Positions 36,523 through 59,885 are shown, counted from the stretch's first letter. The stretch: DNA of 64,000 bases from a bacterium (GCA_029561455.1 JAKQIY010000006.1:142860-206859); one strand, 5' to 3'. Translations and numbers: made by a program. The notes: generated by a model from the sequence alone, not told the origin.

Positions 36523-36623
36523 TTCTTTTCCCTCTTTCTTCCAATTTTAAATTACCATCCATGGCATCATTTATCTTTCTCGAATCCTGAAAAAGGTTGT
36601 ATAAAACATCAAACCGGGTTTAT

Positions 36624-37499
36624 TTAATTCGTTTGTTTAATAACCGCATTATTATTATTGCCGGTTTGTGTTGTCGACGCATTATGGGCATTGCCATACT
36701 GAAATGATTGTGCCGTATTCCAGTCGCCGGTTTGAGTTATTATTGAATAATTATTTTCCGATCCGGGCGTAGTTGCCGATTTATCCATATATTCCTCTGC
36801 AGTATTATTATTTCCGGATTGCACTACAAAACCCTGGTTACCACCGGTATGGCTCCAACCCCATTGTCCGCCAGCCATAATTTGATTGGAATAATTTTCA
36901 ATGCCAGTTTGGGTAGCGCTCAAGCTGGAATGGTCATTCACAGTTCCGCTTCCCAAAACCTGCCACGCTTCATTACCCATGCCGTTATCGCCGCCGCCGC
37001 CATTACCACTTTGAATTATGGTCGCGCCAAGCACGCTGCCATTGATGTGCTGGTTAGCGTAATGGTCGTCGCCGGTTTGGGTAATAGTACCGGTCGATTG
37101 ATTACGTAATTGGTTAATATAAGCTTCATTAAACGAACCGGTTTGGCCTACATTCGCCAGAGCATAATCATTCACATTTTGATTGATATCTGAAATATTC
37201 ATATCACCAAGTTGATTGACTACTGCCTGGGAAGGAGTGCTGCCGCCATAAGCCCCACGATATTGATCTACATCGGACCAGTTATTATTCCCGGTCTGCT
37301 GCACCGTGGCGGTAATGCCGGAAGAATAATACGTATAATCCGTTTTGGTCTGATCAACCGTACTGGTATTACTGGAACCAGTTTGTGTAGTAGTAGCTTG
37401 ATGGTTTTTGCCGGTTTGATTGATGCTCGATGAATTGCTGGCAGCAAGGACAAAACCGGCGAAAACAAGAACAAACAATAAAAGTATTAACTTTTTCAT
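36624..37499 (-). CDS. Curlin-repeat (CsgA/CsgB-like) secreted protein, 291 aa.
   Basis: A signal peptide is present. Repeats include INQTGKNHQATTTQTGSSNTSTVDQ, VQQTGNNNWSDVDQ, VNQLGDMNISDINQ, INQL...ITQTGDDHYANQ, VVQSGNNNTAEE, ITQTGDWNTAQSFQYGNAHNASTTQTGNNNNAVIKQTN. Confidence 0.65.
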   Translation of the reverse strand: MKKLILLLFVLVFAGFVLAASNSSSINQTGKNHQATTTQTGSSNTSTVDQTKTDYTYYSSGITATVQQTGNNNWSDVDQYRGAYGGSTPSQAVVNQLGDMNISDINQNVNDYALANVGQTGSFNEAYINQLRNQSTGTITQTGDDHYANQHINGSVLGATIIQSGNGGGGDNGMGNEAWQVLGSGTVNDHSSLSATQTGIENYSNQIMAGGQWGWSHTGGNQGFVVQSGNNNTAEEYMDKSATTPGSENNYSIITQTGDWNTAQSFQYGNAHNASTTQTGNNNNAVIKQTN

Positions 37500-37689
37500 A
37501 ATGACTACCTCTGTACTTTTACTCTTACCCGGTTTAAAGAATTATTGGTTTTGAATCACAATCGTAATATTAGTGATTCCGGTTTGAATAGCATTACCGG
37601 AATTATTGGTTGTAAATTCAAACCCGGTAAGATAAAATTGATACATAAAAATTTTCATTATTACACTATCCTGTAGAATTATTAAATAA

Positions 37690-38610
37690 TTATGGATAGG
37701 TTTGGTTAACTGTGGCGTTGTTGCCGGTGCCATTCTGCATAACAGTGGCTTTATTAACAAAGTCGCCATAATCGCCAAATAAACCGGTGCCGCCGTTTTG
37801 CACGACAGAAGCTGTATTGGAATCGCCAAGTTGATCAACATCGGACTTGTTAACATTCAGATTTTGGGTTACAGAGGCAGTGTTGTAATTACCGGCCTGG
37901 TAAATACCAAAATCATGATTACTGAACAGTCCTTTGCCGGTTTTATTATCATCGCCGGTTTGAGTTACTTCAGCATAGTTTCCTTGTGCGTTTTTGGCCC
38001 CGCCAGTACCATATTGTACTATGGTAGCAGTATTCCATCTTCCAGTTTGGGTTTCAATAGCCGTATTGCCAACTACCCAGCCGCCGCCGCCCTGTTCATC
38101 GACAACCGCAATATTTGCAGTTCCATCCTGAACTTGCCGTACATACCCGTTAAAACCGGTTTGATAAGAATTAGCTTCATTAGAGTTACCAATTTGATCC
38201 TGGTCAACTGTAGAGGAAACAGTGTGCTGCCAGGCAGTCACTTTATTGGTATTTCCTTCCTGGTATTGAGTGCCGGTGTTGCCACCGTTGCCGCCATCAG
38301 CTAATTGCCATAAAGTGGCCTGGTTATTGTTGCCATGTTGTTCCTGGGCGCCGGTCTCGCCAACAACTGTTGACCCAGCCGGCCAGCCGCCTTTTTGATC
38401 CAGATCGGCCACGTTGCCGGATCCATCCTGAATTTGGGTTGCAGTGCTGGTATTGGCTATTTGTTCAATAGTAGCCGCATTGCTTGAACCGGTCTGTGAA
38501 GCAGAGGCGGTGTTGCCCGAACCGGTTGTCGATATTGTTGCAGAATTGCTGGCCGCAAATACAAATCCGGCCATTGCTAAACAGAGTATAAAGGTAAACA
38601 GGGTTTTCAT
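37690..38610 (-). CDS. Curlin-repeat (CsgA/CsgB-like) secreted protein, 306 aa.
   Basis: A signal peptide is present. Repeats include ASQTGSSNAATIEQ, IQDGSGNVADLDQ, QEQHGNNNQATLWQ, VDQDQIGNSNEANSYQTGFNG, IVQYGTG...VTQTGDDNK, VDQLGDSNTASVVQNG. It is a close paralog of the next gene, with the same N- and C-termini (...ATVMQNGTGNNATVNQTYP). Confidence 0.7.
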   Translation of the reverse strand: MKTLFTFILCLAMAGFVFAASNSATISTTGSGNTASASQTGSSNAATIEQIANTSTATQIQDGSGNVADLDQKGGWPAGSTVVGETGAQEQHGNNNQATLWQLADGGNGGNTGTQYQEGNTNKVTAWQHTVSSTVDQDQIGNSNEANSYQTGFNGYVRQVQDGTANIAVVDEQGGGGWVVGNTAIETQTGRWNTATIVQYGTGGAKNAQGNYAEVTQTGDDNKTGKGLFSNHDFGIYQAGNYNTASVTQNLNVNKSDVDQLGDSNTASVVQNGGTGLFGDYGDFVNKATVMQNGTGNNATVNQTYP

Positions 38611-38642
38611 GATAAACCTCTCTTTTTGTTTAATTTATGTTT

Positions 38643-39545
38643 TTATGGATAGGTCTGGTTTACATTGGCAGAATTGCCATTGCCGTTTTGCATAACTGTG
38701 GCGCTGTTTACAAATGCGCTGAATGCGCCGGTATCGCCGGTTTGATTAATAACTGCATTGTTGGAATCGCCAATTTGATCGACATCGGAAAGGTTGGCAT
38801 TTAAATTCTGGTTAACAAAAGCAGTATTAAAATTTCCTTGCTGATAAATACCCCAGTCGTATTGATTATAATAGCCATCTCCGGTTTTATTGTTATCACC
38901 GGCTTGATTTATTTCCGCCGAGTTGCCTAAAGCAGTTTTTGCAGCGCCTGTTCCATACTGTACAATATTGGCTTTATTGTTTACACCGGTTTGTTTTTCA
39001 ATTGCGGAATTTCCATCGCCGCCGCCCTGTTCATCGACAAAGGCGCTGTTTCCAGTTCCAGTCTGATATTGTTGAACATAACCATTATAACCAACCTGGA
39101 AAGAATTAGCGACATTGGAATTACCAATCTGATCCTGATATGTTTTACTGCTGCCGGTATATTGCCAGGCAGTCGCTTTGTTGCTGTTACCCTCCTGGTA
39201 TTGCCGGGCGTCGTTGCCGCCTTCATTTTCGTTGGCTAATTGTAACAATGTGGCCTGGTTGCTATTGCCATGCTGTTCCTGGGCGCCGGTCTCCCCTACG
39301 ACTGTTGATCCGGCTGGCCAGCCGCCTTTTTGATCCAGATCGGCAACGTTGCCGGTCCCATCCTGTATCTGGTATGCCGAACTGGTGTTGGCAATTTGTT
39401 CAATACTGGCGCCATTGCCGGAGCCGGTTTGCGAGGCCGAAGCGCTGTTCGCGTTCCCGGTGGTCGATATAGTGGCGGTATTGCTGGCGGCATACATAAA
39501 TCCAGCCACTGCCAGACAGATGATAATAGTGAAGAATGTTTTCAT
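38643..39545 (-). CDS. Curlin-repeat (CsgA/CsgB-like) secreted protein, 300 aa. It is the first curlin subunit gene after csgG.
   Basis: It is a paralog of 37690-38610. The repeats include SASQTGSGNGASIEQ, QEQHGNSNQATLLQ, VDQIGDSNNAVINQTGD and ATVMQNGNGNSANVNQTYP. A signal peptide is present. Confidence 0.7.
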   Translation of the reverse strand: MKTFFTIIICLAVAGFMYAASNTATISTTGNANSASASQTGSGNGASIEQIANTSSAYQIQDGTGNVADLDQKGGWPAGSTVVGETGAQEQHGNSNQATLLQLANENEGGNDARQYQEGNSNKATAWQYTGSSKTYQDQIGNSNVANSFQVGYNGYVQQYQTGTGNSAFVDEQGGGDGNSAIEKQTGVNNKANIVQYGTGAAKTALGNSAEINQAGDNNKTGDGYYNQYDWGIYQQGNFNTAFVNQNLNANLSDVDQIGDSNNAVINQTGDTGAFSAFVNSATVMQNGNGNSANVNQTYP

Positions 39546-39666
39546 GGTACTACCCCTTTCTTAAAAATTTTACAGCGTTTTGGTTAAACTGTTGGTTATT
39601 ACTGTTAAAATGCTTACTCCCACAACCCTCCTTTCACGTGTTGATAATTACTAGTATTGTTGATTG

Positions 39667-41091
39667 CTAATAATATTTGATTCCAAACTTGAAACTCCAA
39701 AAATAATCATCCAGTTTGCCATGCAGTATTCCGTCCATGTAATCCGTAAAAGTATACTGGTTTTCAAATAAAAAATTGAAACTGACCTGGCGGGAAACAA
39801 AGCATTCCAGTCCGGCGCCGCCGGCAATAACAGGTTCCCAGCCATTAAAGCGTTTCTCCCTGCTTATTTGTTCTCCTGCTTTATCTCTGACTTTAAAATT
39901 CATAACACCGCCGCCGGCATACACAAATGGCCTTAAACTGCTTTTAGGCCACATATTATAAAATCCCTGTAACTGGGCTAATGCCAGGTCGGTATAAAAG
40001 TTATCACGATTTGCCAGCCGGCCGGCGCTGGCATTGAGCGCCAAAGCGAAGCGGGGATGTAAACCATAACTAATCGTAACATCGCCGCCGGGTCGCAGCC
40101 GGGGATTGGCATAATCACCCTGGTATAACTGGCTGCTGAAGTTGAGCGAAAATGCCAGGCCCTTGTCGTAACCAAACGCCGGAGCTTCGTTAAATGCGGT
40201 TTGTTCCTGACCAAACGCAGAATACCGCTCGCTGTTTTCTTTCTCTACCAGGTAATTTTGGATAATAGGTGATTTGATGTCTTCAGGATTTTTTAATTCC
40301 CAGTTTTTGGTAATAATTCCTTCGCAAATCAAACTCAAAACGCCTTTTTCAATCGCTTCTAAAACACACATCTGCGGGGGTTCATTGGTGCTGTAACCGC
40401 TTTCAATCTCAAGCAAGCGTTTTTCCCGGATAAACCGGTACAGACTGAAATCTACGGCTTTGGATAGGATAGTTTTAGTGGTTGTTACATTATTTAAAAT
40501 CCGTCCCGTTTTTGTGGCAACGGTGCGCAGGTAGATATTAACCTGGTCGCTGCGGAATTCTGTATGACCGCCCAAACCAAAATAGCGGGCGCCAAATCCG
40601 CCGGTTAATGTATTGGTTTCGTAGGAAATGATCCCGCCTTCAAGGGTAACGCCGGCGTAAAGCAGCGGCGGTAATGGGGGAAGTTTATTTCCCTGGTCAT
40701 CGGTATAATTATCGCGGGTGGCGGTGATTATTTTTCGTTCATTTAAAAGATTGGAAATACCTTCGCGTTCAACTACAATGAACCAGCCGGAATCCTCAAG
40801 CGATTTTAACAACATAGACGTGGCGCCCTGGGTGACGGCTGTCGACCAGGTCATGCCGGTAGCAGAGGCTTTGTATTGACCGGTTTGATCGCGGAATTTG
40901 TAAACTGCTATGACGATTTTTTCTTTGGGCTCGGGTAAAGAAATCAACTCTTTATGTACTGATGTAACATAAGTAATGGCTGCCGGTGTACTATGTACCG
41001 GGTTCATATTGCGAAATTGTGGCGAGCAACCAACAGTTAATATTATTAATGCTGTGAGCAGGAAAAAGCCTTTAGCTCTTTTATTATTCAT
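39667..41091 (-). CDS. csgG: Curli production assembly/transport lipoprotein CsgG with an extra C-terminal beta-barrel-like domain.
   Basis: A lipobox is present (LTVGCSP). Residues ~55-290 align with E. coli CsgG by eye: YKFRDQTGQYK.../IQDETGQFK; GATSMLLKSLEDSGWFIVVEREGISNLLNERKII / SATAMLVTALKDSRWFIPLERQGLQNLLNERKII; GGFGARYFGLGGHTEF / GGVGARYFGIGADTQY; ESGYSTNEPPQMCVLEAIEKGVLSLI / EVGYTSNEPVMLCLMSAIETGVIFLI. A further ~190 aa follow that E. coli lacks. They end ...FKFGIKYY, which looks like a small OMP beta-barrel. Confidence 0.85.
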   Translation of the reverse strand: MNNKRAKGFFLLTALIILTVGCSPQFRNMNPVHSTPAAITYVTSVHKELISLPEPKEKIVIAVYKFRDQTGQYKASATGMTWSTAVTQGATSMLLKSLEDSGWFIVVEREGISNLLNERKIITATRDNYTDDQGNKLPPLPPLLYAGVTLEGGIISYETNTLTGGFGARYFGLGGHTEFRSDQVNIYLRTVATKTGRILNNVTTTKTILSKAVDFSLYRFIREKRLLEIESGYSTNEPPQMCVLEAIEKGVLSLICEGIITKNWELKNPEDIKSPIIQNYLVEKENSERYSAFGQEQTAFNEAPAFGYDKGLAFSLNFSSQLYQGDYANPRLRPGGDVTISYGLHPRFALALNASAGRLANRDNFYTDLALAQLQGFYNMWPKSSLRPFVYAGGGVMNFKVRDKAGEQISREKRFNGWEPVIAGGAGLECFVSRQVSFNFLFENQYTFTDYMDGILHGKLDDYFWSFKFGIKYY

Positions 41092-41531
41092 TACAGACCC
41101 TCGCCATTGTAGTATGGTAATTCGATAGTTGTGGTGCCGCCGGTGGAAGGATCGCTGATCTCTATACGCAGCCCCTGTTCAGCGGGAATGACATCAATAG
41201 TATAATCGCCAATTTCATAATGCCCTTCTTCCAATTCCGATTCACCGAATATCTGCGTAACCAGTTTACTGGAAAGCCGGCTCAGAATTTGCCGGTTTAT
41301 ACTGTCGGTAAAATCTTCCAGGGGGTCGCTGGCCTGATAGGAATAAGAACTGGCTTTATCCCCGGTCTTGTCCTGCAGTTGTGCAGAACTTAACAGCCAC
41401 GAAGCATTATATGGATTTCCGCCAAAATTAGGGTTTACAAAGGTATGGACTAATTCTGTGGTGTAACCGGGTAAAACAGAAAACAGAATCAAGCCTAGAA
41501 CGCAAAAAACACCAAAACAGCTCTTGTTCAT
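41091..41531 (-). CDS. csgF: Curli assembly protein CsgF.
   Basis: A signal peptide is followed by [29 protein letters not shown], which matches E. coli CsgF [27 protein letters not shown]. Also [11 protein letters not shown] matches NFTQAIQSQIL, and [29 protein letters not shown] matches [29 protein letters not shown]. The ATGA start/stop overlap with csgG indicates translational coupling. Confidence 0.8.
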   Translation of the reverse strand: [146 protein letters not shown]

Positions 41532-41542
41532 AGTTATTCTCC

Positions 41543-42115
41543 CTAATAAATACCTGTTCCAGCCATATCGTCGCCGGCCATTTGTTTTTGATCCTGAGTG
41601 TAATTAACCAGATAATTGCCGGTAAAACCAGTTGCCTGCCTGGCAGCCTCTTCGATTTCGTCGGATCTTGGCGTTAATCGGTTTTGGTAAATAGAAATAT
41701 CGTTAATATTTATGAAAACCCAGCTGCCGGATTGCCCGGTCGGCATTTCTGAAATATAAATTGTATAATCATAAACCCCGGCAGGAGGCTCCCAGAGGGT
41801 ATAAAAATACTCATAAAATTCCTGACCGATTTTGGTTTTGGTATCGTTAATTATCAGTCCATCAATTTCCAATACATCGCCCGGACGAGTATTTTTTACA
41901 GTCTCAGTTTGTTCTGTTTCTTTAACAGTATCAGCCTGCTGCTGGACTTCCTGCCGGGCTTCCTGCAGTAATTTTTCCAGCAACGCTTTGGTGTTCTGTG
42001 ACTTTTTTTCTTTATCGCTGACTGTTGTACTATCGTTTGTTTGCGTATAAAGGGGTACAGTCATCATAAAAACACACAGCATCGTAACTAAAGTACTGGT
42101 TACACATTTTTTCAT
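41543..42115 (-). CDS. csgE: Curli production assembly/transport component CsgE-like protein.
   Basis: A signal peptide is present. LEIDGLIINDTKTKIGQEFYEYFYTLWE matches E. coli CsgE [28 protein letters not shown], and GSWVFININDISIYQNRL matches GSWITITVNQDVIFQTFL. It is the first gene of the E-F-G order and lies 12 bp upstream of csgF. Confidence 0.65.
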   Translation of the reverse strand: MKKCVTSTLVTMLCVFMMTVPLYTQTNDSTTVSDKEKKSQNTKALLEKLLQEARQEVQQQADTVKETEQTETVKNTRPGDVLEIDGLIINDTKTKIGQEFYEYFYTLWEPPAGVYDYTIYISEMPTGQSGSWVFININDISIYQNRLTPRSDEIEEAARQATGFTGNYLVNYTQDQKQMAGDDMAGTGIY

Positions 42116-42751
42116 AAATTTTTCAGGTGCAGCGAATTAATAAAAGGAACAAGTAATCCCCTTTTTCATCCCACACCCGACTCGCCCTTAATATGATATG
42201 AACCAGGAAATTAACATTATTATATGTCTAGTTTTTTTATTAATTCAAGCACTATGCCAGGTAGAAATTCAGATCTATTGGACAATAACCCCTATGTTGA
42301 TATTTTTCAAATATTTGTAAATGTTCTTATTTCGTAAATATCTTCGAGGAATGGAATTTGTGTTTCCTGACTGAAACAGGTTGATGACAATAATGCTATA
42401 ACATCATAAAAAACATAAATCAAGCAATTGTACTAAAAATGACACAAAAAAGCATCATTCGTGTAATTCGGAAAAATTTGTAATTATACCTGTAATAAAA
42501 AAAAACAAACAATTAAAACAAAAATGATCATTAAAAATACTCAACTTTAGATTGCCAGGTAAGTTATTTGAAAATTAAAGATGATGAGGTTTTAGAGCGG
42601 GACCTTGACAGTACGATTCACTCTTTTTTAACCAGAAGCATAAATTTTTAAAATTATAGCTTCTGGTTCACAATCTCCCGATTGGGAACCCGCTTGTACA
42701 AAATCTCTGATTTGATATGCAAAAATTATATAAAAAAATAACTGCTTTAAA

Positions 42752-42801
42752 GGAATCGGAGATTCCTGACCACTTTCGTTCCTGAACGGGAAATCAGGAA
42801 C
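42752..42801 (-). terminator. Candidate intrinsic terminator of two tandem hairpins for the minus-strand operon 44765->42882.
   Basis: Two perfect hairpins are present: GTTCCTGA-ACGGGAAA-TCAGGAAC (42778-42801) and GGAATC-GGA-GATTCC (42752-42766). Read on the minus strand, they are followed by a T-rich run (the reverse complement of 42721-42750). Confidence 0.3.
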
Positions 42802-42881
42802 TAAGAAACAATGATTGTAAATTACTTGCTTATTGAAATGAACTCTTTAATCACGCCGTTTCCCGGTGTCATTAATACTAT

Positions 42882-43055
42882 CTAAAAGGACAACAGCGAA
42901 TCCGTCTCGTTCTCCACCCGTTTGCGCGTTACATACACTACAAAGCCATCCACCCCGGAGCCGTCATAATCCACTTCCAGAGATACCTTGCTGCGACTCT
43001 GGATGATCTTGTGCAGCAGCCGGATGATCTGCGGTATACTCAACTTGCCGCTCAT
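42882..43055 (-). CDS. Hypothetical small protein, 57 aa.
   Basis: It reads MSGKLSIPQIIRLLHKIIQSRSKVSLEVDYDGSGVDGFVVYVTRKRVENETDSLLSF. Its ATG overlaps the TGA of the upstream small gene (ATGA), which indicates translational coupling. It is not in the ORF track, and I did not recognise a family (it faintly resembles DUF2283). Confidence 0.35.
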   Translation of the reverse strand: MSGKLSIPQIIRLLHKIIQSRSKVSLEVDYDGSGVDGFVVYVTRKRVENETDSLLSF

Positions 43056-43291
43056 GCTGTTTTCACTCCTTCAAATCCTGCCTCGGCAAACCGTTTTTCG
43101 GTAATTTTCCCGCTCACCAAGCCAATGCTTTCCACCCGCCCGGACTTTTCCCGGCATTCCCGGCAATCTTGCGCTAAACAACGGGTGCAATAATGGCATT
43201 TTTCTGTATTGTCTTGCATTTTTTCTCCACTATTTTTTCCAAAACCCCAATTAGGCCTTAATAGTTGCAATACCTTGTCCCCTTTGTCCAT
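43052..43291 (-). CDS. Hypothetical small Cys-rich protein, zinc-ribbon-like, ~79 aa from ATG 43291.
   Basis: It reads MDKGDKVLQ...EKCHYCTRCLAQDCRECREKSG..., with a GGTGGA Shine-Dalgarno 5 nt upstream of the ATG. It contains a C-x2-C...C-x2-C cluster. The track lists a GTG-initiated version starting at 43300. Confidence 0.4.
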   Translation of the reverse strand: MDKGDKVLQLLRPNWGFGKNSGEKMQDNTEKCHYCTRCLAQDCRECREKSGRVESIGLVSGKITEKRFAEAGFEGVKTA

Positions 43292-43400
43292 GCCGTCCAC
43301 CGGTTACCGGGTGAAGCATTCTGTCCAGGACTTGTTACAGTTTAAATTTCATTTGGAACGAATGCTTCACCCCTACTCAACTAGACAAAAATCCCGGCCA

Positions 43401-44765
43401 TCAATTCTCCACCCCCAACAACCTTCTTGCCCCCCGCACCGCGCCGTTGCGGCCATCCCCATCGGCGATAACCTGCAACAATCCCGCCGCACGGTTGATA
43501 CCCTTGATCCGCTTTTTCGGCAAAAATCCCCCATTACGCACCAGGTGGACAAACTCTTCTTCATCGATCATCCCCATTTCAAACATGCGCTGGTAAGCGT
43601 TCAACTCCTTGTCCAGCGCCGTGGCGTTCAGCAGCCGCGCCCGCGCCTGTTCCGTCTTGTCGAGCAGATTAACCTCTTTCCATTCCAGCTTCCAGTTCGC
43701 CCCGGCCTCGCCGCGCAGGATCAAAAACGTATCCACCACGCGACGTATAATCGGGTCGATTTTCGTCCGGTACGAGTTGATATTCGCAACGATCATATCG
43801 TTCTGGTTATTGCTCATCCGCTCGGTCGTCGTCCACTTGTACAGACCGAACATAAACGGCGGCAGTCCCGTTTTGGTTATGATTTCCTCCTGCGCCGTAT
43901 GCACCGGCACTTGCAGGTTCAATATGGTATCCTGTCCGCCGAGTATTTTCACGTCGATACTGGCCCCCTCCGGCACGGCCGCGGCTACATCCCGCACACT
44001 CCCCCTGCGCCGAGCCCGGAACACCTCGGTAATATCATTCTGCAAATCCTCCGCCGCTTTTTTTACGCGCCCGAAATCGCCCCCGCGGCCCCCTTGCACC
44101 GTCACCAGGAAGGTCGGGTCCCCCACCCGCCATACCTGGTTTTCGATAGCCTGCTGGATGCGTAAAAAGATTTTCACCACAAACGGCAGCGAATAAAACA
44201 GACTGTATCCCTGCGGATGCCCGTCCCGCTGATCAAAACTGAGATAATAGATGAAATCCTGGTTGGCAAACGGCAGCACATTAAACACCCCCTCGCGCGC
44301 CTGACCCAGCAGCAAACAACCGTTGCGCTCCACAAAGCGGAAATCGTTGGCACGGGCGATCTTGAGCTGCTCCACATCATCCAGCATTTCGGACGGCACC
44401 AGTTCCCCAAAACCCATGCCTTTAGCCAGCGCCGAATCGCACAACTGGTCCACCCACGTATTCAGGCCCGAACTGAAATGGTTCACCCGTACGCCGGACT
44501 TGAACGCGTTCAGCAACTGCTGCACGCGCGGATCTTGCGCGGTCAACTCAAAATCGCCGATCAGCCGCACCAGCTTGATTACCGCCACATCCAAAAGCGG
44601 CACCGCCTCGCGCATCAGGTCGTACAAGTCCAGGTTGAACTTTAATGGCTGATAACCTTGCAGCGCCAGCGCAAAAGGATTCTCCCACGCATCGCGCGTC
44701 TGTGTCCGACTGCTTTTGGCGGACTCTTCCCGCCCCGCAAACCACCTGCTAAAAGGATTTCGCAT
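43401..44765 (-). CDS. Hypothetical soluble protein, 454 aa, family not recognised. It has a vague phage-portal-like feel.
   Basis: The ORF is intact with no signal or TM segment. It has a Gly-rich loop (VQGGRGGDFGRV). It is the first gene of a three-gene minus-strand operon. Confidence 0.6.
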   Translation of the reverse strand: MRNPFSRWFAGREESAKSSRTQTRDAWENPFALALQGYQPLKFNLDLYDLMREAVPLLDVAVIKLVRLIGDFELTAQDPRVQQLLNAFKSGVRVNHFSSGLNTWVDQLCDSALAKGMGFGELVPSEMLDDVEQLKIARANDFRFVERNGCLLLGQAREGVFNVLPFANQDFIYYLSFDQRDGHPQGYSLFYSLPFVVKIFLRIQQAIENQVWRVGDPTFLVTVQGGRGGDFGRVKKAAEDLQNDITEVFRARRRGSVRDVAAAVPEGASIDVKILGGQDTILNLQVPVHTAQEEIITKTGLPPFMFGLYKWTTTERMSNNQNDMIVANINSYRTKIDPIIRRVVDTFLILRGEAGANWKLEWKEVNLLDKTEQARARLLNATALDKELNAYQRMFEMGMIDEEEFVHLVRNGGFLPKKRIKGINRAAGLLQVIADGDGRNGAVRGARRLLGVEN

Positions 44766-44933
44766 CTTTTCTCCCCTCTTTAATCACGACTACAAGATAC
44801 ACAAATAATTCTTTTTTCCAAGCAAGATTGGGTAATTTACACAGAGGGGGGAAAGAAATTATTTTTTATGCTTGTTCAACTCTTCAACCAGTTTGAAAAT
44901 AATGTTACATTTAAAAATATTCAAGAAAAACAA

Positions 44934-44962
44934 TTGACAAAACGCTTTAAATATATTAGATT
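44934..44962 (+). promoter_or_regulatory. Candidate sigma70-like promoter (TTGACA-N17-TAGATT) for the nucleotidyltransferase gene, possibly giving a leaderless mRNA.
   Basis: TTGACA is at 44934-39, a 17-nt spacer follows, TAGATT is at 44957-62, and the ATG is at 44969 with no SD. Confidence 0.25.
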
Positions 44963-44968
44963 TAAAGC

Positions 44969-45238
44969 ATGATATCAACTCAAGACAAACAACAAATAAT
45001 TGAAATTGCCCAAAAATACCAGGCAGCGCGCGTTTTTCTGTTTGGTTCCAGTATCGATCCGCACAGAACTCCAAAAGATATTGATCTAGCTGTGGAAGGC
45101 CTGCCCGATAACCTGTTCTTCAAATTCTGGGGCGAACTTATCTTTGCCCTCTCCAAGCCGGTTGATCTGATTGATCTGAAAAGAGAAACCCGCTTTACAG
45201 AAATAATCCGCGCTGAAGGTCTTTTATTATTTGGATAA
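44969..45238 (+). CDS. Minimal nucleotidyltransferase (MNT) domain protein, the antitoxin-type partner of HEPN/MNT pairs.
   Basis: The motif LFGSSIDPHRTPKDIDLAVEG matches the G[SG]...D.D nucleotidyltransferase fold signature. It is 89 aa. No HEPN partner ORF is evident next to it. Confidence 0.7.
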   Translation: MISTQDKQQIIEIAQKYQAARVFLFGSSIDPHRTPKDIDLAVEGLPDNLFFKFWGELIFALSKPVDLIDLKRETRFTEIIRAEGLLLFG

Positions 45239-45272
45239 TATACTGTATCCATAATCAACTACTCACCTTAAC

Positions 45273-45320
45273 AAATCGTCCATTCAATGGCTGAATTTCA
45301 ACCACTGAGTGGACGATTTG
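45273..45320 (+). other. Strong stem-loop immediately downstream of the MNT gene, a possible terminator or attenuator.
   Basis: A 15-bp stem with one G-U pair (CAAATCGTCCATTCA / TGAGTGGACGATTTG) encloses an 18-nt loop. It is not followed by a clear U-tract. Confidence 0.3.
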
Positions 45321-45490
45321 CATAATTTAACTCCTTAATAATCAATAAAACTACCACTAAAAATCAAACAAAACTTTAAAAACATTTTTGCACATCTTTA
45401 ATTACAAAAAATCCTTGAATATCACCGGATTTTTCCTTAATATCACCATACAATCGGGTTGTACATCTTACTATATACGACCGGGTAACT

Positions 45491-46120
45491 ATGCAAAACT
45501 CAAATAAATATATTGCCATCATCGGCGATCTGGTCAACTCCCGCGCCATGACCAACCGCAACGAGGTGCAAAATGCGTTGATCAATACCCTGAACACTAT
45601 CAACTCCAGCGATCTCAAACAACATATCGCCGCCAAATTCGTTATTACCCTCGGTGATGAATTCCAGGGACTGGTAACGCGTAATTTCCCCCTTCACCCT
45701 TTTCTCGAATTATATCATTCCGGCCTGCCCGCCAATGTCGCTACCCGCTTTGGTATCGGCCTGGGAGAATTGGCCACCGAATTAAAAAGCGAAACCATCG
45801 GTATGGACGGCCCCTGCTTTCACAACGCCCGCTCTGCAATTACCAGGGCTAAAAACGAAAATATCAACCTTATCTTTCAGGGTTTCGAAATGAATACCGC
45901 TCTCAATGCCTTGTATCATAACATTAACAATATTACCCAAAACTGGAAAGCCAGACAACTGCAAGTTATCTCGCTTTATAAAGATACGGAAGATCAAACG
46001 AATGTTGCAAAAAAAATGAAAATATCAAGACAAGCGGTTCATCGTATTTTAAAAGCAGCAAAATATGACCTGGTGCAAACCGGCTGGGATGGTGTACAAG
46101 AACTATTCTCCTTTATTTGA
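45491..46120 (+). CDS. SatD-like protein with a C-terminal helix-turn-helix, a putative regulator.
   Basis: The N-terminal YIAIIGDLVNSRAM resembles the signature I recall for SatD-family proteins. The C-terminal KMKISRQAVHRILKAAK is HTH-like, sigma-70 region-4 style. Confidence 0.45.
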   Translation: MQNSNKYIAIIGDLVNSRAMTNRNEVQNALINTLNTINSSDLKQHIAAKFVITLGDEFQGLVTRNFPLHPFLELYHSGLPANVATRFGIGLGELATELKSETIGMDGPCFHNARSAITRAKNENINLIFQGFEMNTALNALYHNINNITQNWKARQLQVISLYKDTEDQTNVAKKMKISRQAVHRILKAAKYDLVQTGWDGVQELFSFI

Positions 46121-46132
46121 GAATAATAACTT

Positions 46133-46242
46133 TTGTCAACCATTTTTGGTTGACAAAGCCATTGTCAACCATTTTTGGTTGACTACAGCCCAGTCAATTA
46201 AATTTGATTGACTGAAGCCTAGTCAATCAAATTTGATTGACT
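46133..46242. promoter_or_regulatory. Array of four palindromic sites, two of each of two types, immediately downstream of the SatD-like gene.
   Basis: TTGTCAACC-ATTTTT-GGTTGACAA is at 46133-46156 and repeats at 46162-46184 with one mismatch. CAGTCAAT-N8-ATTGACTG is at 46191-46214. AGTCAATCAAATTTGATTGACT, a perfect 22-bp palindrome, is at 46221-46242 and is followed by TTTTATTAT. Confidence 0.5.
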
Positions 46243-46453
46243 TTTATTATACTACACTCCTGCAAATTTCCTGTTAATAAAAAAATCCCCTTACAAACAC
46301 TGAAAAAATCACTGTATTGACCTCTAATCAAGGTCAACGAAATACGAAATTATTAAGATGGATATTTTCCCTGGGAAAAAAAATCTGTTGCATTCTAGCC
46401 AAATTCCTGTTATTTTTTCTTAAATAAACCGTTTATAATATTGCAGGTGAAAA

Positions 46454-46795
46454 ATGCACACAAAATTCTATCCCCTTGTCATTCTGATCGCAGTTATCCT
46501 TCTCTCCCTGGCGGGTTGTTCCAAAGACGAACCCACCAAAAGCAAAGCCCCGGCCAACGTGGTCGGCACCTGGCGTATCGAGTGGACCGCCCAGCCGAAT
46601 CATGGCTCGTTTACCATTACTTTTAAATCCGATTTTACTTACACCTCAACGGCTGCCGCCGAACCCGGCACATTCGATTCTAACGGCAAAAAAATCTCCT
46701 GGATGATGAATAATATTTATTACTCTGCAACAGTCGGCGGCACATCCATGAGCGGCACCCTCGCTGATGGTAATTTTATCGGCGCCAAACAATAA
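46454..46795 (+). CDS. Small hypothetical lipoprotein, 113 aa.
   Basis: A lipobox is present (SLAGCSKD). The sequence is beta-rich and I did not recognise a family. Confidence 0.5.
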   Translation: MHTKFYPLVILIAVILLSLAGCSKDEPTKSKAPANVVGTWRIEWTAQPNHGSFTITFKSDFTYTSTAAAEPGTFDSNGKKISWMMNNIYYSATVGGTSMSGTLADGNFIGAKQ

Positions 46796-46993
46796 CCAGG
46801 CAGCTTCTGTTGTTTATAGAGTACCTCTTTTATATTGTGCTTGCAATCGGTAGGATAGGGTCTTGCCCTATGTAAAAATTTTCATTTATTGTAATCAGGA
46901 TTTTCCAAGAGTACATGATCAGAATTAAGCAATGACAGGGCAAGCCCCCATCGAACCCTTAATTACCAAATTAAAAAGCAAAGCATTTACTCT

Positions 46994-47968
46994 TTAATAC
47001 CCGCTTATCCACAGGTTGCCGTAAGCATCAAAATCCATATCTGTTAATTTTTCAATCTGCCGCCCGGTTTTGCTGTCAATCAGGGCATAAGTGGCAATAA
47101 CGTTCATATTATTATCATACCGCTTTAATACCTGTTCGGAATTGTCATAAGAATAGAGTCCTTCTTTCCAGGCCAACGCTTCCAGTTGCACCACCGGGGG
47201 CGTCCAGGTTTCTGCAAACCCGCCAATAGTTACATCGTGCCGGAAAATTGCGGTCCGCGAACAGGAGAACAACCGCTCGCCGGCCTTGTCGTAGGCCAAT
47301 CCGGTCAGATTGGCGCTCACCGCATATCCCCCTGCCCGCGAGCCGTCAAAGCGATTCAATACTATAATTGAATCCGGCGCCTGGGTAACATAAAAGTTAT
47401 TTCCGATAATCGTACAGGCTTTAATATTTTTATCTTTTAAAATATTGGGCAAATATTTTTCAACTACCCATTTACTGTTCTCATACTTGAATTGTATTAT
47501 ATCAGTTGAAAAAAACCAGCAGGTTGTATTATGGATGGCCATCGGTTTGCCGGAATAAACCATATCGTCTAGTCGTAACCGCGAAGTTAAATAAATTTTG
47601 GGAACCCTATAATCCCGGTTTATATCACTATAATCGACCTGAAAATTCCGGTCGCCAATCGGATAGCCATCCCTTTCAAAATGTAAAAAATATTTGCCGG
47701 GGTAAACCGGGGTAATTAAAAAATTCCCGAGGCTATCGCTTACACCTCGGAAAAAGACCGAATCCACATCATATACTAACACCGCAGCGGTTAATACTAC
47801 TTTTACTCCCGCCAAAGTACTATCACTATCCCAATCTGTGATCTTGCCACTAAAGCTGTAGAATGGTATATCCGGCCGCGTAACGTGATGATCTTGTTTG
47901 TTCCAGCACCCGGCGAAAAAAATCATTAAAATACAGGTTACGCAATGCAACTTTTTAAACCTTGTCAT
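46994..47968 (-). CDS. Lipoprotein of the same multi-copy family as 22964-28215; this is a sixth, dispersed copy.
   Basis: The lipobox is FFAGCWNKQDHHVTRPDIP. The N-domain reads KITDWDSDSTLAGVKVVLTAA...SDSLGNFLITPVYPGKYFLHFERDGY. The C-terminal signature is ...YALIDSKTGRQIEKLTDMDFDAYGNLWISGY. Confidence 0.75.
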   Translation of the reverse strand: MTRFKKLHCVTCILMIFFAGCWNKQDHHVTRPDIPFYSFSGKITDWDSDSTLAGVKVVLTAAVLVYDVDSVFFRGVSDSLGNFLITPVYPGKYFLHFERDGYPIGDRNFQVDYSDINRDYRVPKIYLTSRLRLDDMVYSGKPMAIHNTTCWFFSTDIIQFKYENSKWVVEKYLPNILKDKNIKACTIIGNNFYVTQAPDSIIVLNRFDGSRAGGYAVSANLTGLAYDKAGERLFSCSRTAIFRHDVTIGGFAETWTPPVVQLEALAWKEGLYSYDNSEQVLKRYDNNMNVIATYALIDSKTGRQIEKLTDMDFDAYGNLWISGY

Positions 47969-48204
47969 AGTACAACCTCTGTCAGAAAAAAACTTGTAAA
48001 TTTTTACAAACTTTATAAAATATTAGTATTAAGATTGTTCGTTAACCAGACAATTGTATAACAACTCTGCGAAAAATGCAATTCATTTTTTAACTAAAAT
48101 TCAAAAATTTACAATTGCATTTGTAATAATGAGCTTTGATTAATGCAACCAATTTTCTAAATTCATTATATTATCATTAAACCATATAACAATCGCGGAA
48201 CCAG

Positions 48205-49860
48205 GTGACTATGAAAACCTTACTAAAAACCATCTGTTTTATTTTGTGTTTGTTTATTCCGGTTTTAACTTTATCCACAACGCCGCCTCCTCCCTCGATA
48301 CAGATCAACGACGCGATGGAATTCACCTCCTCCAATTTGCCGATTGTCGTCATCAATACCAACGGTATGCAAATCCGCGATGATCCGCGTATAATAGTGG
48401 ACATGGGCATTATCGATAACGGCAATGGCCAGCGGAATAATTTAACCGATCCCTTCAACGATTACAACGGTAAAATCGGCATCGAATATCGCGGCAGCGC
48501 CACCAGCGCTTATCCCAAAAGACAGTACCGCATCGAAACCGTCGATTCCCTCGGCGAAAACCTCAATGTCTCCCTCATGGGCCTGCCCAAAGAAAATGAC
48601 TGGATTTTATATGGGCCCTATACCGACGATATTTCCCTCATTCGCCATGTTCTCGCCTACCGGCTGTCCAATGAAATTGGCCGCTATGCCAGCCGCACCC
48701 GGCTCTGCGAACTGGTGATGAATGATGATTACCGCGGTTTGTATGTGCTTATGGAAAAAATTAAACAGGATAAAAATCGCGTCGATATTGCTAAACTACT
48801 CTCTACCGATATTACCGGCGACGAGATCACCGGCGGTTATATAATCAAGGTCGATAAATCTGCCGGAGAAAACGTCGCCGGCTGGCAATCTGAAAACCGC
48901 GTCAATTATCAGTACCATGATCCCCAGGCTGATGAACTGGTTACCCAGCAAAAACAATACATCAAAGATTACATCAATAGTTTTGAATCCTGCATGGCGA
49001 ACCTGGATGATAACGAACAGAACGACATTCCGGAGTATGCCGCTTTTATCGACGTACCTTCATTTGTCGACCATTTTCTACTCAATGAATTCTGCAAAAA
49101 CGTGGACGCTTACCGAATCAGCGCTTATTTATATAAAGAAAAGGACAGCAAAGGCGGTAAACTTTATGCCGGGCCGGTGTGGGATTTCAACCTCAGTTTT
49201 GGTAACGCCTGGTATGCTGAAGATTACATGGTTACCAATACCTGGCAGGTGGATTATACCACTATCATTCGTCCCTGGGATGGTTATAAAGTCCCATTCT
49301 GGTGGCCAATTTTGGCGCGCGATCGGGCTTTTGTTGAATTACTCTTGCAGCGCTGGAATGAACTCAAAAACCTCAATTTCAGCAAAGATCATCTTTATAC
49401 GGTTATTGATAATCTCGTTATTGTCATGACTGAAGCCCGGCTACGCAATGCAGCGCGCTGGCCGGAAATGGCAGATAATGATTACGAGGCGGAAATAACC
49501 ACTATGAAACACTGGCTCAGCGACCGCTGGGACTGGATGAATATCAATCTTGGTTTATTGCCCTCCGGCACTAGCGGTTCGGCAGATGTGGCTAATCAGT
49601 TCGCTTTACAACAAAATTTCCCCAATCCGTTCAATCCCGCTACTACCATAACCCTCAAGATATTATCAAAAGCGCAGGTCGAATTAAAAGTCTACAACAC
49701 CCTCGGCCAGGAAGTAACCACCCTGGTCAATGATGTTATTTCACCAACACTAAGCTATCCTGTTGAATTCAACGCTGCCGGATTACCATGCGGAGTATAT
49801 ATTTATCAACTCAAAGCCAATAATTATGTCACGTGCAAAAAAATGGTACTGATCCGATAA
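48205..49860 (+). CDS. CotH kinase family protein with a T9SS C-terminal sorting domain.
   Basis: CotH-like blocks are present (EYRGSATSAYPKRQYRIE; YRLSNEIGRYASRTRLCELVMNDDYRGLYVLMEKIKQDKNRVDI; LNEFCKNVDAYR). A signal peptide is present. The CTD reads NFPNPFNPATTITLKIL...LKVYNTLGQEVTTLV...GVYIYQL...KKMVLIR. Confidence 0.8.
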   Translation: MTMKTLLKTICFILCLFIPVLTLSTTPPPPSIQINDAMEFTSSNLPIVVINTNGMQIRDDPRIIVDMGIIDNGNGQRNNLTDPFNDYNGKIGIEYRGSATSAYPKRQYRIETVDSLGENLNVSLMGLPKENDWILYGPYTDDISLIRHVLAYRLSNEIGRYASRTRLCELVMNDDYRGLYVLMEKIKQDKNRVDIAKLLSTDITGDEITGGYIIKVDKSAGENVAGWQSENRVNYQYHDPQADELVTQQKQYIKDYINSFESCMANLDDNEQNDIPEYAAFIDVPSFVDHFLLNEFCKNVDAYRISAYLYKEKDSKGGKLYAGPVWDFNLSFGNAWYAEDYMVTNTWQVDYTTIIRPWDGYKVPFWWPILARDRAFVELLLQRWNELKNLNFSKDHLYTVIDNLVIVMTEARLRNAARWPEMADNDYEAEITTMKHWLSDRWDWMNINLGLLPSGTSGSADVANQFALQQNFPNPFNPATTITLKILSKAQVELKVYNTLGQEVTTLVNDVISPTLSYPVEFNAAGLPCGVYIYQLKANNYVTCKKMVLIR

Positions 49861-50153
49861 AAAAATTCTTCTCTTCGGGTTTGAATAAATGGGGGAATTA
49901 ATTTATTTAAAAAAAAGTTATTTATATATATTTTTGAAGATCGGATATTCTATAAATCCCTGCCCGGTATAATTTTTCTATTCTCCTAGAGTTTAATACT
50001 CAATGAAGAAAAGTGATTAATTCGATCTTGTACAAATCTCAGGTCTGCCACGAAATAAACGCCACCACTCTCCGGTATTATGAATCTGTAATTTTACTTT
50101 TAGGTGTAGAGTAATTTCCTTATCTAAAATTTCTCATTATCAGGAGAGAGCTT

Positions 50154-53100
50154 ATGAAAATGCATAATTTTTTACTCTGTATGATAGGCTTTATTTTGTT
50201 TTCCGGAATTTCATTAGCTACCGCTCCCTCTAGCGGGTTAAAACCAGATTTTCCAAATTTGTTATACACACAATACATACCTTCACTATTAACTATACCA
50301 ACTGCATCACAATTAACCAAAATTGCCGATATTGGCGGACGAACCAACACAATTATATTCAAGGATTATTACGTTTGCGCCAATGAAGGCAGAAACCTGG
50401 TCATTATCGATTTATCCGACCCAACTACACCGCAACTAATGAGTAAGCTCCAGCTAGGTGAGAGCTTTATCACCAATCTCTTTGTTTCCGGTGAAAAGGC
50501 GCTGGCCTGCACAGAATTTTCCGGCACATATATTATTGATCTGACCAATCCATACACACCTGTCATTATCGGTCATATTCCGGCGATTGGCATCGTTTAT
50601 GAAACTTATTTTGCAGGTAATTATGCATATCTTGCAGAAGGGAAAAATGGCTTTAACATTTATGATATTACGAATCCTGAACAGCCGCAAACTGTTTACC
50701 ATAACGCCGATTCCACCTATAATATTCGGATTAATGGTGCATTTTGTTATACCTGCAGCGGCTCAAAAATTACAGAATTGAATGTAAACAACCCGGCTTC
50801 ACCGCAAATAATTACGGAATTCAAACTTGGTTTTGATAATGCCAGGATGCTATATCTACACAATAATTAGATTTATGTACAGGATTACCATGAATTGCGC
50901 ATTTACGACATCAGCAATCCAGCAACATTACATCAAACTGGTTCTTATTCCTTCCCATCAGATCCCTGGGATTTAAAAGTGAATGGGAATCTCGCCTATA
51001 TTGTCTGATCCAGGTATTTTAGTATCCTGAATATCAGTAATCCTGCCACTCCACAATTAGTTAGCCAACAAGTGAACTTTTATCGGCCCTTACAGCTAGC
51101 AGTGTCAGGCGATTTGGCCTTGCTAGCCTGTTGGGAAAATAATATTCAGGTCCATAATTGCAGTGATCCTGCCAATCCAGCGCTAATATCCACCTGGGTA
51201 GGAGTGGCGCCAGTTGCACAATCAATAACAATAGATAAAAACAAAGCATTTATTGCCGAAAGGATGGGGGGAATGGCTATTGTGGATATTTCCAATCCGG
51301 CAGTTCCGCAATTAATACAAAAATATACAAACAACCTTAAAAGCTGTGATGCCGTCGCCGTTAAAGATAACATTGTACTGCTGGCCGAAACTGATATATT
51401 GCATATTTTTGATTATTCAAATCCGGCAGGGCTTTTACCCCTTGCCGATTTTTCTGTTCCGGAAGGTACAATAAAGAGTATATTAATTGACGGCTCGACA
51501 GCCTGGCTGGCTGCAAGTAATGAGGGTTTGATCGCACTGGATATCAGCGATCCGGCTCATCCTGCTAAAATCAGCCAGGTGGACAATTCTCAATATGTAG
51601 GAAATTTGGCAATATCCGGCAATTATATATGGGTTACCGAATACCTGTGTGGTTTGAGAGGATATAATATTTCAACCCCTTCAAATCCTCAGGAGATTGC
51701 ATTCATCCCAACTCTTTCCAAATCCAGAGATATTGTCATTAGTGGTAACTATGCTTATATCATCCAGGATGATAATTCAAAAATTTACATTGTGGATATT
51801 AGCGCTCCGCTATCGCCAGGTGTTGTGGATAGTGTGAATACCGAGATTTTTGACCCTTATTCTGTTCACATACAAAATAATATACTTTTTATTGCCGGAT
51901 TTAGAGGAATTCAGGGCTTTGATATCAGCAATCCAACGCAACCTGTCGAGGCCATCGCTTATTGTAAAGTATCTACCAATATTAATCATATAAAGGGAAA
52001 CAATGAATTTCTGTATGCCGCAAATGAAGGTATGGGCCTTGAAATCTACAAACTGCCAGGCTCACCTGTTGTTTCAGGAATAATCGTTACAAACACCAAT
52101 GACCTGGGGGAAGGCTCGCTGCGCCAGGCGCTGGATCAGGCCAACAGTGAAACAGGCCCCGATACCATCCGGTTTAATATTCCTGTCACCGACCCGAATT
52201 ACAATGCCGCCTCAGGTGTGTGGACAATTAAACCGGTTTCACAGTTACCATCCTTTAATGAGCAGACAGTTATTGAAGGTAATTCCCAGGCTGATTTTAT
52301 CGCCGAAGACACCAATCCCAACGGCCCGGAAATTCAAATCGACGGCAGCCTGTTATCATCCTGTCCGGGTTTAATTGTCAACGCCGATAATTGTGAAATC
52401 AGCGGCCTGGCTATTATCAATTTCCAGAGAGCGGCCATAAACGCCTCTCATGTTAACGGCCTTAAAGTCTGGGGCTGTTACCTGGGTCTCGATGCCACAG
52501 GCGCTACCGCCGGCCCCAACCTGTACGGCATTTTCTTATTCAACAATTGTAGCAACTCCATCATTGGTCCCATTGATGATTCCATGTCCCCCAATGTTAT
52601 CTCCGGAAATAGCGAAGTCGGTATTTACCTGGTACAAAACTCGTCAAATAATACTGTATATCGAAACATAATCGGTCTTGATCCGCAAGCGACTGTAAAG
52701 ATCGGCAATGCCGTTGCCGGTATTGCTATTGGGGATCAGTCCATAAATAATATGATTGCGGAAAATATTATTGCCGGTAATAAAGATGGTATTAGCATTG
52801 CTGATTGCATTGAAAATCAAATTCAGAACAACTCTATTGGCGCCAATCCCGAGTTCATTGCCAATCTTGGCAACACCGAATATGGTATCTACATAACGGG
52901 CTCCTCGGAACGTAATATGATTTGTGAAAATTCCATCTGGTATAACGGTTTGTACGGTATACTTGTTATAGGTCAGAATTGTGTTACAAACACTATCAGC
53001 CGCAACAGCATTGCCTTTAATTCGGAAGCGGGCATCGACCTGCGCTACGGCGGCAATAACGACATGCAGCCACCCGGACAGTTGCATAAAACCGGCGCAA

Positions 53101-57454: not shown

Positions 57455-57485
57455 AATACCGGGTACAAATATTTCGTTTTTTCTC

Positions 57486-57513: not shown

Positions 57514-57539
57514 AAATTCTTTCAAATTCTATATTCATC

Positions 57540-59859: not shown

Positions 59860-59885
59860 AAAAATATCTCAATTGTTTTTACTAA

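Follow-up and report, generated by a model that had tools for sequence, protein, structure and literature searches.

The portal genes of tailed phages of the HK97 lineage and of gene transfer agents (GTAs) are positioned ahead of the head-morphogenesis genes and of the gene for the HK97-fold capsid protein, and solved structures represent this group of portals (RcGTA, 6te8 and 6tba; HK97, 8cez; lambda, 8k38). Cryptic and defective prophages arise by recombination at repeats or at insertion sequence (IS) elements, as exemplified by the cryptic prophages of E. coli K-12; their remnants are phage late-operon fragments located beside host genes, with a breakpoint in repeated DNA. Here we describe a fragment of this type, a portal gene followed by two small genes, that lies next to genes for a solitary minimal nucleotidyltransferase (MNT) and for a SatD-family protein in a 64,000-nucleotide stretch of bacterial DNA (GCA_029561455.1, JAKQIY010000006.1:142860-206859). 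We refer to this whole stretch as the window and count all positions from its first letter; the nearest named relatives of the host bacterium are members of candidate division KSB1.

The two neighbors of the trio also have described counterparts. MNTs are known as partners of HEPN toxins in type VII toxin-antitoxin (TA) systems, of which MntA is the reference, and the window protein shares with them the minimal nucleotidyltransferase family and the GS...DXD motif. The SatD family was named in 2001. Its members (PF16264) are encoded together with DUF3307 proteins (PF11750), as in the sat operon of Streptococcus; the window shares with these pairs a full-length SatD domain and a periodic set of palindromes. 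According to one study, the satD gene is essential yet accessory in Streptococcus pyogenes, and S. mutans is the only other streptococcus in which it had been studied (PMC11323703). In the literature that we searched, no paper mentioned DUF3307 or PF16264 and none linked SatD with GGDEF; SatD is uncharacterized there. A resemblance to the Panoptes guard systems, in which an mCpol minimal CRISPR polymerase is combined with a membrane effector (PMC12657218, PMC12657230), is no more than a lead: Panoptes is without the helix-turn-helix (HTH) and the operator-like array that are both present with SatD, no nucleotide product of SatD is known, some SatD pairs lie among housekeeping genes, and SatD has no match in PADLOC.

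An earlier note, prepared from the sequence of the window, had presented this patch as an islet of non-housekeeping genes reminiscent of defense or TA loci. The non-housekeeping character of the patch was confirmed, and the patch proved to be rearranged as well. We are confident that it represents not one system but the junction of three unrelated items (the portal trio, the MNT and SatD) in a rearranged, repeat-rich stretch of DNA.

Identification of the Portal Protein and of the Cluster to Which It Belongs

The 454-amino-acid open reading frame (ORF) on the minus strand was found at positions 43401-44765, as previously described; its description as a protein of unrecognized family was, however, wrong. 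Residues 18-390 align with positions 2-369 of the 386 positions of the portal profile phrog_30703 (E = 2.5e-68), and we annotate the ORF as a full-length portal protein of a tailed phage or a phage-like element. The Pfam portal models stayed below their thresholds, with Phage_portal_3 reaching only E = 0.041. An AlphaFold2 model of the protein (predicted local distance difference test score of 74, built from 28 homologs) was compared by Foldseek with the PDB: among the matches listed, 50 of 50 were portals or portal-containing neck or connector structures, each with a probability of 1.00, and they stem from tailed phages, an archaeal tailed virus and the RcGTA particle. The top match was the RcGTA neck (6te8; E = 2.9e-9), in a ranking among portals that is nearly flat. 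The predicted fold is that of the HK97-lineage and GTA portals over nearly its whole length, although the sequence identity to solved portals amounts to just 10-17%. Relatives of the portal were detected by tblastn in six phage records, and a profile-guided scan of the IMG/VR viral contigs yielded 137 of them, none of which is a close relative of the window protein. The profile match and the modeled fold thus agree in identifying the 454-amino-acid protein as a tailed-phage portal, a member of exactly the kind of ordinary family that the earlier note had named as speaking against its proposal. The candidate effector being a phage portal, a false lead is removed from the genome scan.

Close relatives of the portal are found in five comparison loci, with identities to the window protein of 94% (L002), 82% (L003 and L008, the latter a metagenome-assembled genome [MAG] of candidate division KSB1) and 74% (L001 and L007). 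In each of them the portal gene is followed further on by a gene for a head protein of 390-440 amino acids, a gene for a 148-amino-acid protein, the capsid gene and tail genes, so that the portal occupies the position ahead of the capsid genes known from HK97-lineage phages. Directly 3' of the portal gene, two small genes are present in L002, L003 and L008, and a single 50-amino-acid gene in L001 and L007. The major capsid protein of the relatives is HK97-fold (phrog_3922, E = 5e-54), and beyond it are encoded several connector-sized proteins, a 263-amino-acid protein, two small proteins and a protein of about 1000 amino acids with LVIVD repeats. The 64-kb window contains none of these further genes, and the integrase, terminase, capsid, tail and lysis genes that make up an intact prophage were not found as a set; the window holds just the portal gene and the two small genes. 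All close relatives, and also sister assemblies of this strain, have beside the portal the capsid-assembly genes that are missing there in the window.

Judged by this shared gene order, the trio is the first three genes, and hence the promoter-proximal end, of an HK97-type phage head-tail cluster that extends over at least 11 kb in the relatives. The co-occurrence of the three genes in other genomes, which the earlier note had proposed to check, does exist; the trio recurs, however, only as the start of the capsid-tail cluster and never as a separate islet. The window portal differs from the HK97-lineage portals in its separation from the capsid genes, and its close relatives differ from them in having no adjacent terminase gene.

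The composition of the DNA fits with a foreign origin: the GC content is 50-58% in the trio patch versus roughly 30-46% on both flanks. From GC content and blastn homology to L002, we delimit a phage-derived segment (42811-44858, minus strand) comprising a leader, the portal gene and the two small genes. The identity to L002 is 91% across 44858-43389 and 77% across 43284-42811, and homology ends beyond these positions. The end at 42811 is located about 70 nt past the stop codon of the 57-amino-acid gene, just before the next gene of L002.

The Breakpoint Lies in a Dispersed Repeat

To the left of the phage-derived segment, an alignment of nine sequences from five distinct sites revealed a dispersed repeat of about 150 bp with three hairpins (42660-42808), of which the window contains one copy. 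Contigs of sister assemblies, which we found through exact-protein look-ups of the MNT, the portal and CsgE, allowed us to align this copy at the base level with those of two other arrangements. In configuration A (L017 and L019-L022; JGI 3300010355 and ERZ27257483), 10,327 bp match the window without a single mismatch, starting at 42674 and reaching at least 53000, and the DNA continues leftward into a 403-amino-acid gene, the capsid gene and the rest of the cluster; L017, L019 and L033, all 100% identical to the window across 42674-53000, run into the 403-amino-acid, capsid and 997-amino-acid genes. In configuration C (L024 and L025; ERZ27257483 and JGI 3300009780), it is the same as in the window from 36000 to 42715, and beyond this position it encodes large secreted proteins together with a histidine kinase and a response regulator of the sigma-54 type. 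The arrangement of the window, configuration B, was retrieved only in contig k141_18677 of ERZ27257428. Configurations A and C are about 88% alike across 42716-42783, where the window follows A, and to the left of 42674 the window follows C. The window copy of the repeat is hence a hybrid, with its left part from the curli-side copy and its right part from the phage-cluster copy, and the 42 bp that are identical in both parental arrangements (42674-42715) form the crossover core and the breakpoint of the phage cluster. Since the window follows C on one side and A on the other, with 42 bp in common, its sequence is that of a crossover inside 42 bp of identity.

Two readings of the join between the curli locus and the trio have to be weighed. 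On balance, we lean slightly toward a homologous recombination that took place very recently and in only a part of the population. Under this reading, a crossover in the 42-bp core of the repeat would detach the trio from the remaining cluster and would place it beside the far side of the curli locus. An assembler with k = 141 of the de Bruijn type should not traverse a 42-bp repeat without reads that support the path. The curli and trio proteins share the same longest contig (217,272 bp), while the regulator (190,001 bp) and the 399-amino-acid protein (232,359 bp) do not, which suggests that the 217,272-bp contig is a second assembly with the arrangement of the window. Should the join be real, a simple deletion would have had to remove more than 232 kb, and we therefore regard an inversion between two inverted repeat copies as the more plausible event.

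The other reading, that an assembler joined two loci at the repeat, falls only somewhat short of an even chance. In two MAGs at NCBI, CsgE is next to the sigma-54 regulator by accession adjacency (HPG40738/HPG40739; HPN45151/HPN45150), the portal (HPG41930), MNT and SatD proteins are consecutive elsewhere, and the 399-amino-acid (HPG42079), 148-amino-acid and capsid genes (HPG42077-42079) are on another stretch. Each of the two parental junctions was found in four assemblies, and that of the window in one, to which the inferred 217-kb contig may be added. Sequence alone cannot show that curli and portal genes are joined in cells. A scan of JGI and ENA for the reciprocal recombinant (403-amino-acid gene, repeat, sigma-54 regulator) gave only other copies of the repeat and neither a parental nor a recombinant junction. 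The ends of other contigs fit the breakpoint in the repeat: of the two Logan contigs (k = 31), one stops at 42700 and the other starts at 42686, exactly as predicted for a shared 42-bp node that has two entries and two exits, and three further assemblies have contigs that terminate in the dispersed repeat or close to it. Unlike the cryptic prophage remnants, the fragment shows no decay and is 100% identical to the intact copy in the sister assemblies, so that the event was either extremely recent or non-biological, i.e., an assembly join.

Irrespective of whether the join is real, the trio is the severed 5' end of a phage late operon. Since a portal alone builds nothing, the fragment is without a predicted function of its own. 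Our data also call for caution in the annotation of metagenome contigs, which can produce apparent islets when they change context inside a shared repeat as short as 42 bp.

The repeat itself occurs at five or more distinct sites; besides the sites described above, the same community has at least three others, unrelated to them, with copies at L027:~10490-10650, L028, L029, L030:~3255-3410, L031 and L032. Two inverted copies are 219 kb apart on one contig. The three hairpins are GGTTCCCAATC-TCCC-GATTGGGAACC, GGAATC-GGA-GATTCC and CTCGTTCCT...AGGAACGAG, and the ends, read from the alignment as CTTCTGGTTCCCAATCTCC and GGAGATTAGGAACGAGGAG, are inverted; we class the element with dispersed repeats resembling miniature inverted-repeat transposable elements or repetitive extragenic palindromic (REP) sequences. 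It has no match in Rfam and no copy in IMG/VR. In the complete cluster, the spacer 3' of the 57-amino-acid gene reads as a nest of small repeats: it measures 620 nt in configuration A versus 157 nt in L002, which indicates an invasion of the cluster by repeats in this strain. Near copies of the first repeat (L017:~5430-5560 and the right flank in L028 and L029), we observed another family of short repeats, with the core ACAGTCCATAAAGGGACTG.ACTCCGGATTC.

SatD, Its Missing Partner and a Conserved Palindrome Array

The satD gene (45491-46120, plus strand) encodes a protein that matches PF16264 across residues 7-191 (E = 5.7e-33; 114.8 bits at a cutoff of 29). This match, together with a structural model that contains the HTH, is in agreement with its previous description as a SatD-like protein with a C-terminal HTH. 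The N-terminal part models as a palm fold of the nucleotide-cyclase/GGDEF type, and Asp13 and a GDEFQG hairpin are invariant in the alignment of the family; these predicted features of the palm suggest nucleotide binding or synthesis.

In eight of the 11 comparison loci (L118-L120, L121, L124, L128, L130 and L131), satD is followed by a DUF3307 gene, which encodes a membrane protein, and in the other three by a shorter unnamed gene. The distance between satD and the DUF3307 gene varies: in L118-L120, which are KSB1-like relatives, the latter lies 175-250 nt downstream, a Fusobacterium record has a gap of 10 nt, and in L124, an Arthrobacter plasmid and two haloarchaeal plasmids there is a 4-nt overlap. 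The window differs from these pairs: a tblastn search of the entire window with four DUF3307 proteins gave a best E-value of 0.5, so that the window SatD is orphaned, and the gene of a 113-amino-acid lipoprotein follows satD in place of the DUF3307 gene. The surroundings of the pairs vary. In L124 the pair is embedded among the housekeeping genes uvrB, birA, coaX and groES, and in L118 (478-3946) a ParE-toxin pair and an MNT-HEPN pair immediately precede satD, a TA-rich neighborhood.

Downstream of satD, a palindrome search identified four palindromes of 20 bp with 7-nt arms, a 6-nt spacer and a period of 29 bp (starting at 46135, 46164, 46193 and 46222; array 46133-46242). They are unique in the window, where 0-0.16 would be expected by chance, and their spacers are A/T-rich. 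The earlier note had seen all four and had assigned them to the SatD protein; the N5 spacer that it gave for the GTCAACC palindromes needs correction to 6 nt, the N5 form having 0 matches. Periodic arrays beside satD in distant bacteria and archaea support the assignment to SatD as far as sequence comparison can do so. The same architecture was found beside satD in L118, L120, L121, L122, L128 and L129, and a looser one in L119, L123 and L124. In the spacer between satD and the DUF3307 gene, L120 has three copies of TGTCAACC-N6-GGTTGACA, and L118 has GTCAGCC/GGCTGAC along with GTCAATC/GGTTGAC. Arrays upstream of satD carry GTTCGCC/GGCGAAC in Halorientalis and Haloplanus, TACAACC/GGTTGTA in Natronosalvus and TTAGCCC/GGGCTAA in Sphingomonas. 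Looser arrays are likewise upstream of satD in Agrobacterium, L124 and L119. In distant lineages, the array precedes a translationally coupled pair instead of lying between its genes. Applying a strict definition (two palindromes that each have no more than one mismatch and resemble each other in their arms, at a distance of 28-29 nt and within 320 nt of satD), we recovered such a pair in seven of the ten scored satD loci and 0 pairs in 1.31 Mb of other DNA. What is new in these data is the palindromes beside SatD as a conserved companion of this regulator family.

Since the geometry is conserved, the arms are lineage-specific and the array is always ahead of the DUF3307 unit, the data argue for an operator array bound by the SatD HTH. 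We infer that the HTH would bind the palindromes, which in the relatives lie directly upstream of the DUF3307 transcription unit, and that it would thereby repress the partner gene; in the window, DUF3307 would have been lost, with the regulator and its operators left orphaned. Two further satD loci that were inspected and not scored fit this reading less well, having no periodic array (one palindrome in Arthrobacter, none in Fusobacterium). The same holds for the very stable RNA fold predicted for the array (-60.6 kcal/mol; z = -12.8).

We consider it unlikely that the array is a compound RNA structure instead, be it a small REP-like element or, at the 3' end of satD, a terminator or stabilizer. 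The stable fold with its U-rich tail end would suit such a role, and several of the arm mismatches would pair as G-U in RNA. Arrays upstream of satD, as found in the haloarchaeal plasmids, Sphingomonas, Agrobacterium and L124, are on the other hand at positions where a terminator makes no sense, and 18 nt separate the last unit of the Natronosalvus array from the start codon of satD. The 7-6-7 architecture and the period of 28-29 bp are kept while the arm sequence varies by lineage, as co-evolution with a dimeric HTH protein predicts, and the motif of the window array was found nowhere else in the 120 fetched loci.

A broader version of the operator reading is quite improbable as a whole, namely that SatD proteins, as palm domains of the cyclase/GGDEF type fused to an HTH, bind tandem 20-bp palindromes 28-29 bp apart and restrain DUF3307, the widespread pair being a guard- or TA-like two-gene module that is possibly gated by a nucleotide. 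The window copy would then be a relic that kept the regulator and the operators and lost the partner. If true, such a module would account for satD being both essential and accessory in S. pyogenes, a behavior that would fit a repressor of a harmful partner. Taken together, the predicted cyclase fold of SatD, its fixed membrane partner and the operator-like array conserved in Bacteria as well as in Archaea provide a testable model of its function.

What Kind of Element Is the Portal-Led Cluster?

The copies of the cluster in relatives differ in their completeness and in the position of a terminase gene. In L001, the entire element spans about 11.3 kb and is flanked by host genes. The MAG CAXXFV01 (L010, L011, L013, L014 and L016) contains two full copies, whose identity of 92-98% begins 117 nt upstream of the portal, and three further copies that consist only of the leader and the first ~228 portal codons. 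About 2 kb downstream of the truncated copy in L013, the only truncated copy that was examined in this respect, is an IS21-type element with IstA/IstB-like ORFs, so that portal 5' fragments beside IS21 are found here as in remnants made at repeats or IS elements. Judged from these copies, breakage or copying of the portal-led module has occurred repeatedly, each time with the same boundary on the left.

About 40 of 45 IMG/VR relatives have a frame of 400-660 codons directly upstream of the portal gene, and 15 of these frames are homologous to a putative terminase of L004. In L005 and L010, a GpA-type terminase gene is located 6-7 kb upstream of the portal gene; in CAXXFV01 it is present, 6.8 kb upstream, beside only one of the two full copies. 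The cluster may accordingly be a prophage, either a defective one or one whose terminase gene is distal. As a counterweight to its placement in an ordinary phage late operon, no terminase-like gene was found within 10-19 kb upstream of the portal in the strain of the window, in L001/L007 or in L008, and even the complete cluster may be defective or unusual. In the window, there is no terminase-sized minus-strand ORF in 44766-64000.

A domesticated, terminase-less set of genes for a GTA-like particle of KSB1-related bacteria, with the split at the repeat as an on/off rearrangement in the population, would account for the absence of a terminase gene from these three independent contexts, in all of which the same conserved leader opens the cluster and host genes precede it. 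It would also account for ORFs that are all intact at 72-94% portal identity, for RcGTA as the top structural match, and for an element in L001 of just ~11.3 kb between host genes. We regard this explanation as very unlikely. The GC content of the cluster is well above that of the host in all contexts, which suggests recent acquisition, and the insertion sites are non-syntenic. The two full copies in one MAG, with three truncated ones beside IS elements, are typical of mobile DNA, related phages (L005 and L010) have their terminase gene 6-7 kb upstream, so that it may be merely distal or lost, and the flat Foldseek ranking takes weight from the RcGTA match.

At the tail end of the cluster, the ~1000-amino-acid protein with LVIVD repeats (beta-propeller; L001:17332-20331 and L033:18924-21365) has weak similarity to LVIVD proteins of the host that are secreted by the type IX secretion system (T9SS; window 50322-55900) and is not a typical helical tape-measure protein.

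The Solitary MNT and the Defense-Islet Proposal

The MNT (44969-45238, plus strand; 89 amino acids) matches the Pfam Polbeta family PF18765 with 34.7 bits at a cutoff of 26.9, and the residues of its GS-X9-DXD catalytic motif are G26-S27 and D37-I38-D39 of the translation. That it stands alone, without a HEPN partner, was correctly noted before: there is no HEPN-sized ORF on either side, and neither 44766-44968 nor 45239-45490 contains an ORF of at least 40 amino acids with HEPN potential, the only feature being a hairpin. In this, the window MNT is set apart from the MNT-HEPN systems; it also scores far below the cutoff of the NCBIfam MntA equivalog (27.2 bits versus 60), and the paired MNT near the L118 SatD is neither its ortholog nor related to it beyond the catalytic motif. 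No plasmid relatives of the window MNT were found. The hairpin after the gene (45272-45320), probably a terminator, exists as proposed, with arms of 24 nt at 88% complementarity in place of the 15 bp that had been reported.

The MNT and SatD have no demonstrated link to the trio. They are not neighbors of the cluster in L001, L007 and L008, and since the genes upstream of the cluster differ in every other genome, nothing ties the MNT to the trio. A 34-amino-acid ORF on the plus strand (window 44868-44972), whose stop codon overlaps the start of the MNT gene (ATGA), is included in the JGI gene calls of sister contigs.

That the 454-amino-acid protein and the two mini-genes form the effector module of an undescribed defense or TA system, possibly regulated by SatD or the MNT, is extremely improbable and, with respect to the effector, refuted: the non-housekeeping and compositionally foreign nature of the patch, a weak match of the MNT to the PADLOC single-gene candidate PDC-S09 (E = 2.9e-7) and the one SatD relative (L118) amid ParE and MNT-HEPN genes are outweighed by a portal that is canonical in sequence and fold, by a trio that in relatives as well as in same-strain sister assemblies is always continued by capsid and tail genes, by the MNT and SatD not being neighbors of the cluster in L001, L007 and L008, and by the PADLOC-DB v2 models, among which the portal, the small proteins and SatD had no match above noise. 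The PADLOC search that the earlier note had suggested thus returned no defense system and just the weak single-gene candidate match of the MNT.

Small Genes, Leader and Other Features of the Window

The third gene of the trio (42882-43055, minus strand) encodes a conserved protein of 57 amino acids with homologs in L002, L003 and L008. Its start codon overlaps the stop codon of the preceding gene (ATGA at 43052-43055), just as had been described. The protein is 82% identical to the 57-amino-acid protein of L002 and 57-59% identical to those of L003 and L008, and it has no match in searches of the family libraries Pfam, PHROG and NCBIfam. The preceding gene (43052-43216, minus strand) encodes a small Cys-rich, zinc-ribbon-like protein, homologs of which are also present in L003 and L008. 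Alternative annotated starts are at 43291 (79 amino acids) and 43300 (82 amino acids). The ATG at 43216 (MQDNTEK...) and its ribosome-binding site GGAGAAAAAATG are kept in the 53-amino-acid gene of L002 and the extra N-terminal codons are not; judged by this conservation, the gene probably starts at 43216 and its product probably has 54 amino acids. The CxxC protein of the earlier note is accordingly retained as a gene, and its length of about 79 amino acids is not.

Between the portal gene and the small genes, an inverted-repeat search found a hairpin with 19-nt arms (43309-43372); it coincides with a gap in the alignment with L002 and, being absent from there, is specific to this strain. Ahead of the portal gene is a leader of about 95 nt (44766-44858, minus strand) that is conserved in four loci; the other copies are L001:9905-10000, L002:118-210 and L003:~225-316, and the DNA further upstream differs in all four. 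The leader is conserved across loci whose portals are 72-94% identical, with the invariant blocks TGTGTAA.TTACCCAA..TTGCTT.GA and TTTATCTT, and is probably a late promoter or a regulator-binding site of the cluster.

A 13-bp exact direct repeat, CTCTTTAATCACG (42843 and 44776), was considered as the ends of a 1.9-kb insert and rejected, because the homology to L002 extends over both copies. L002 has not kept the downstream one, and at least ~0.15 matches of this kind are expected by chance in 4.4 kb.

There are no tRNA genes in the window, and an Rfam scan of 42100-46500 gave only sub-threshold microRNA noise. On the plus strand, five successive ORFs of near-equal size (330-346 amino acids; 22964-28215) are possibly a tandem paralog family. 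A curli-type locus is found on the minus strand (34663-42115); it encodes CsgG, CsgF, CsgE and several proteins with faint or weak matches to Curlin repeats, in a bacterium that also encodes many T9SS cargo proteins (Por_Secre_tail). Within this locus, about 800 bp are duplicated at 73% identity (37817-38611 with 38761-39546).

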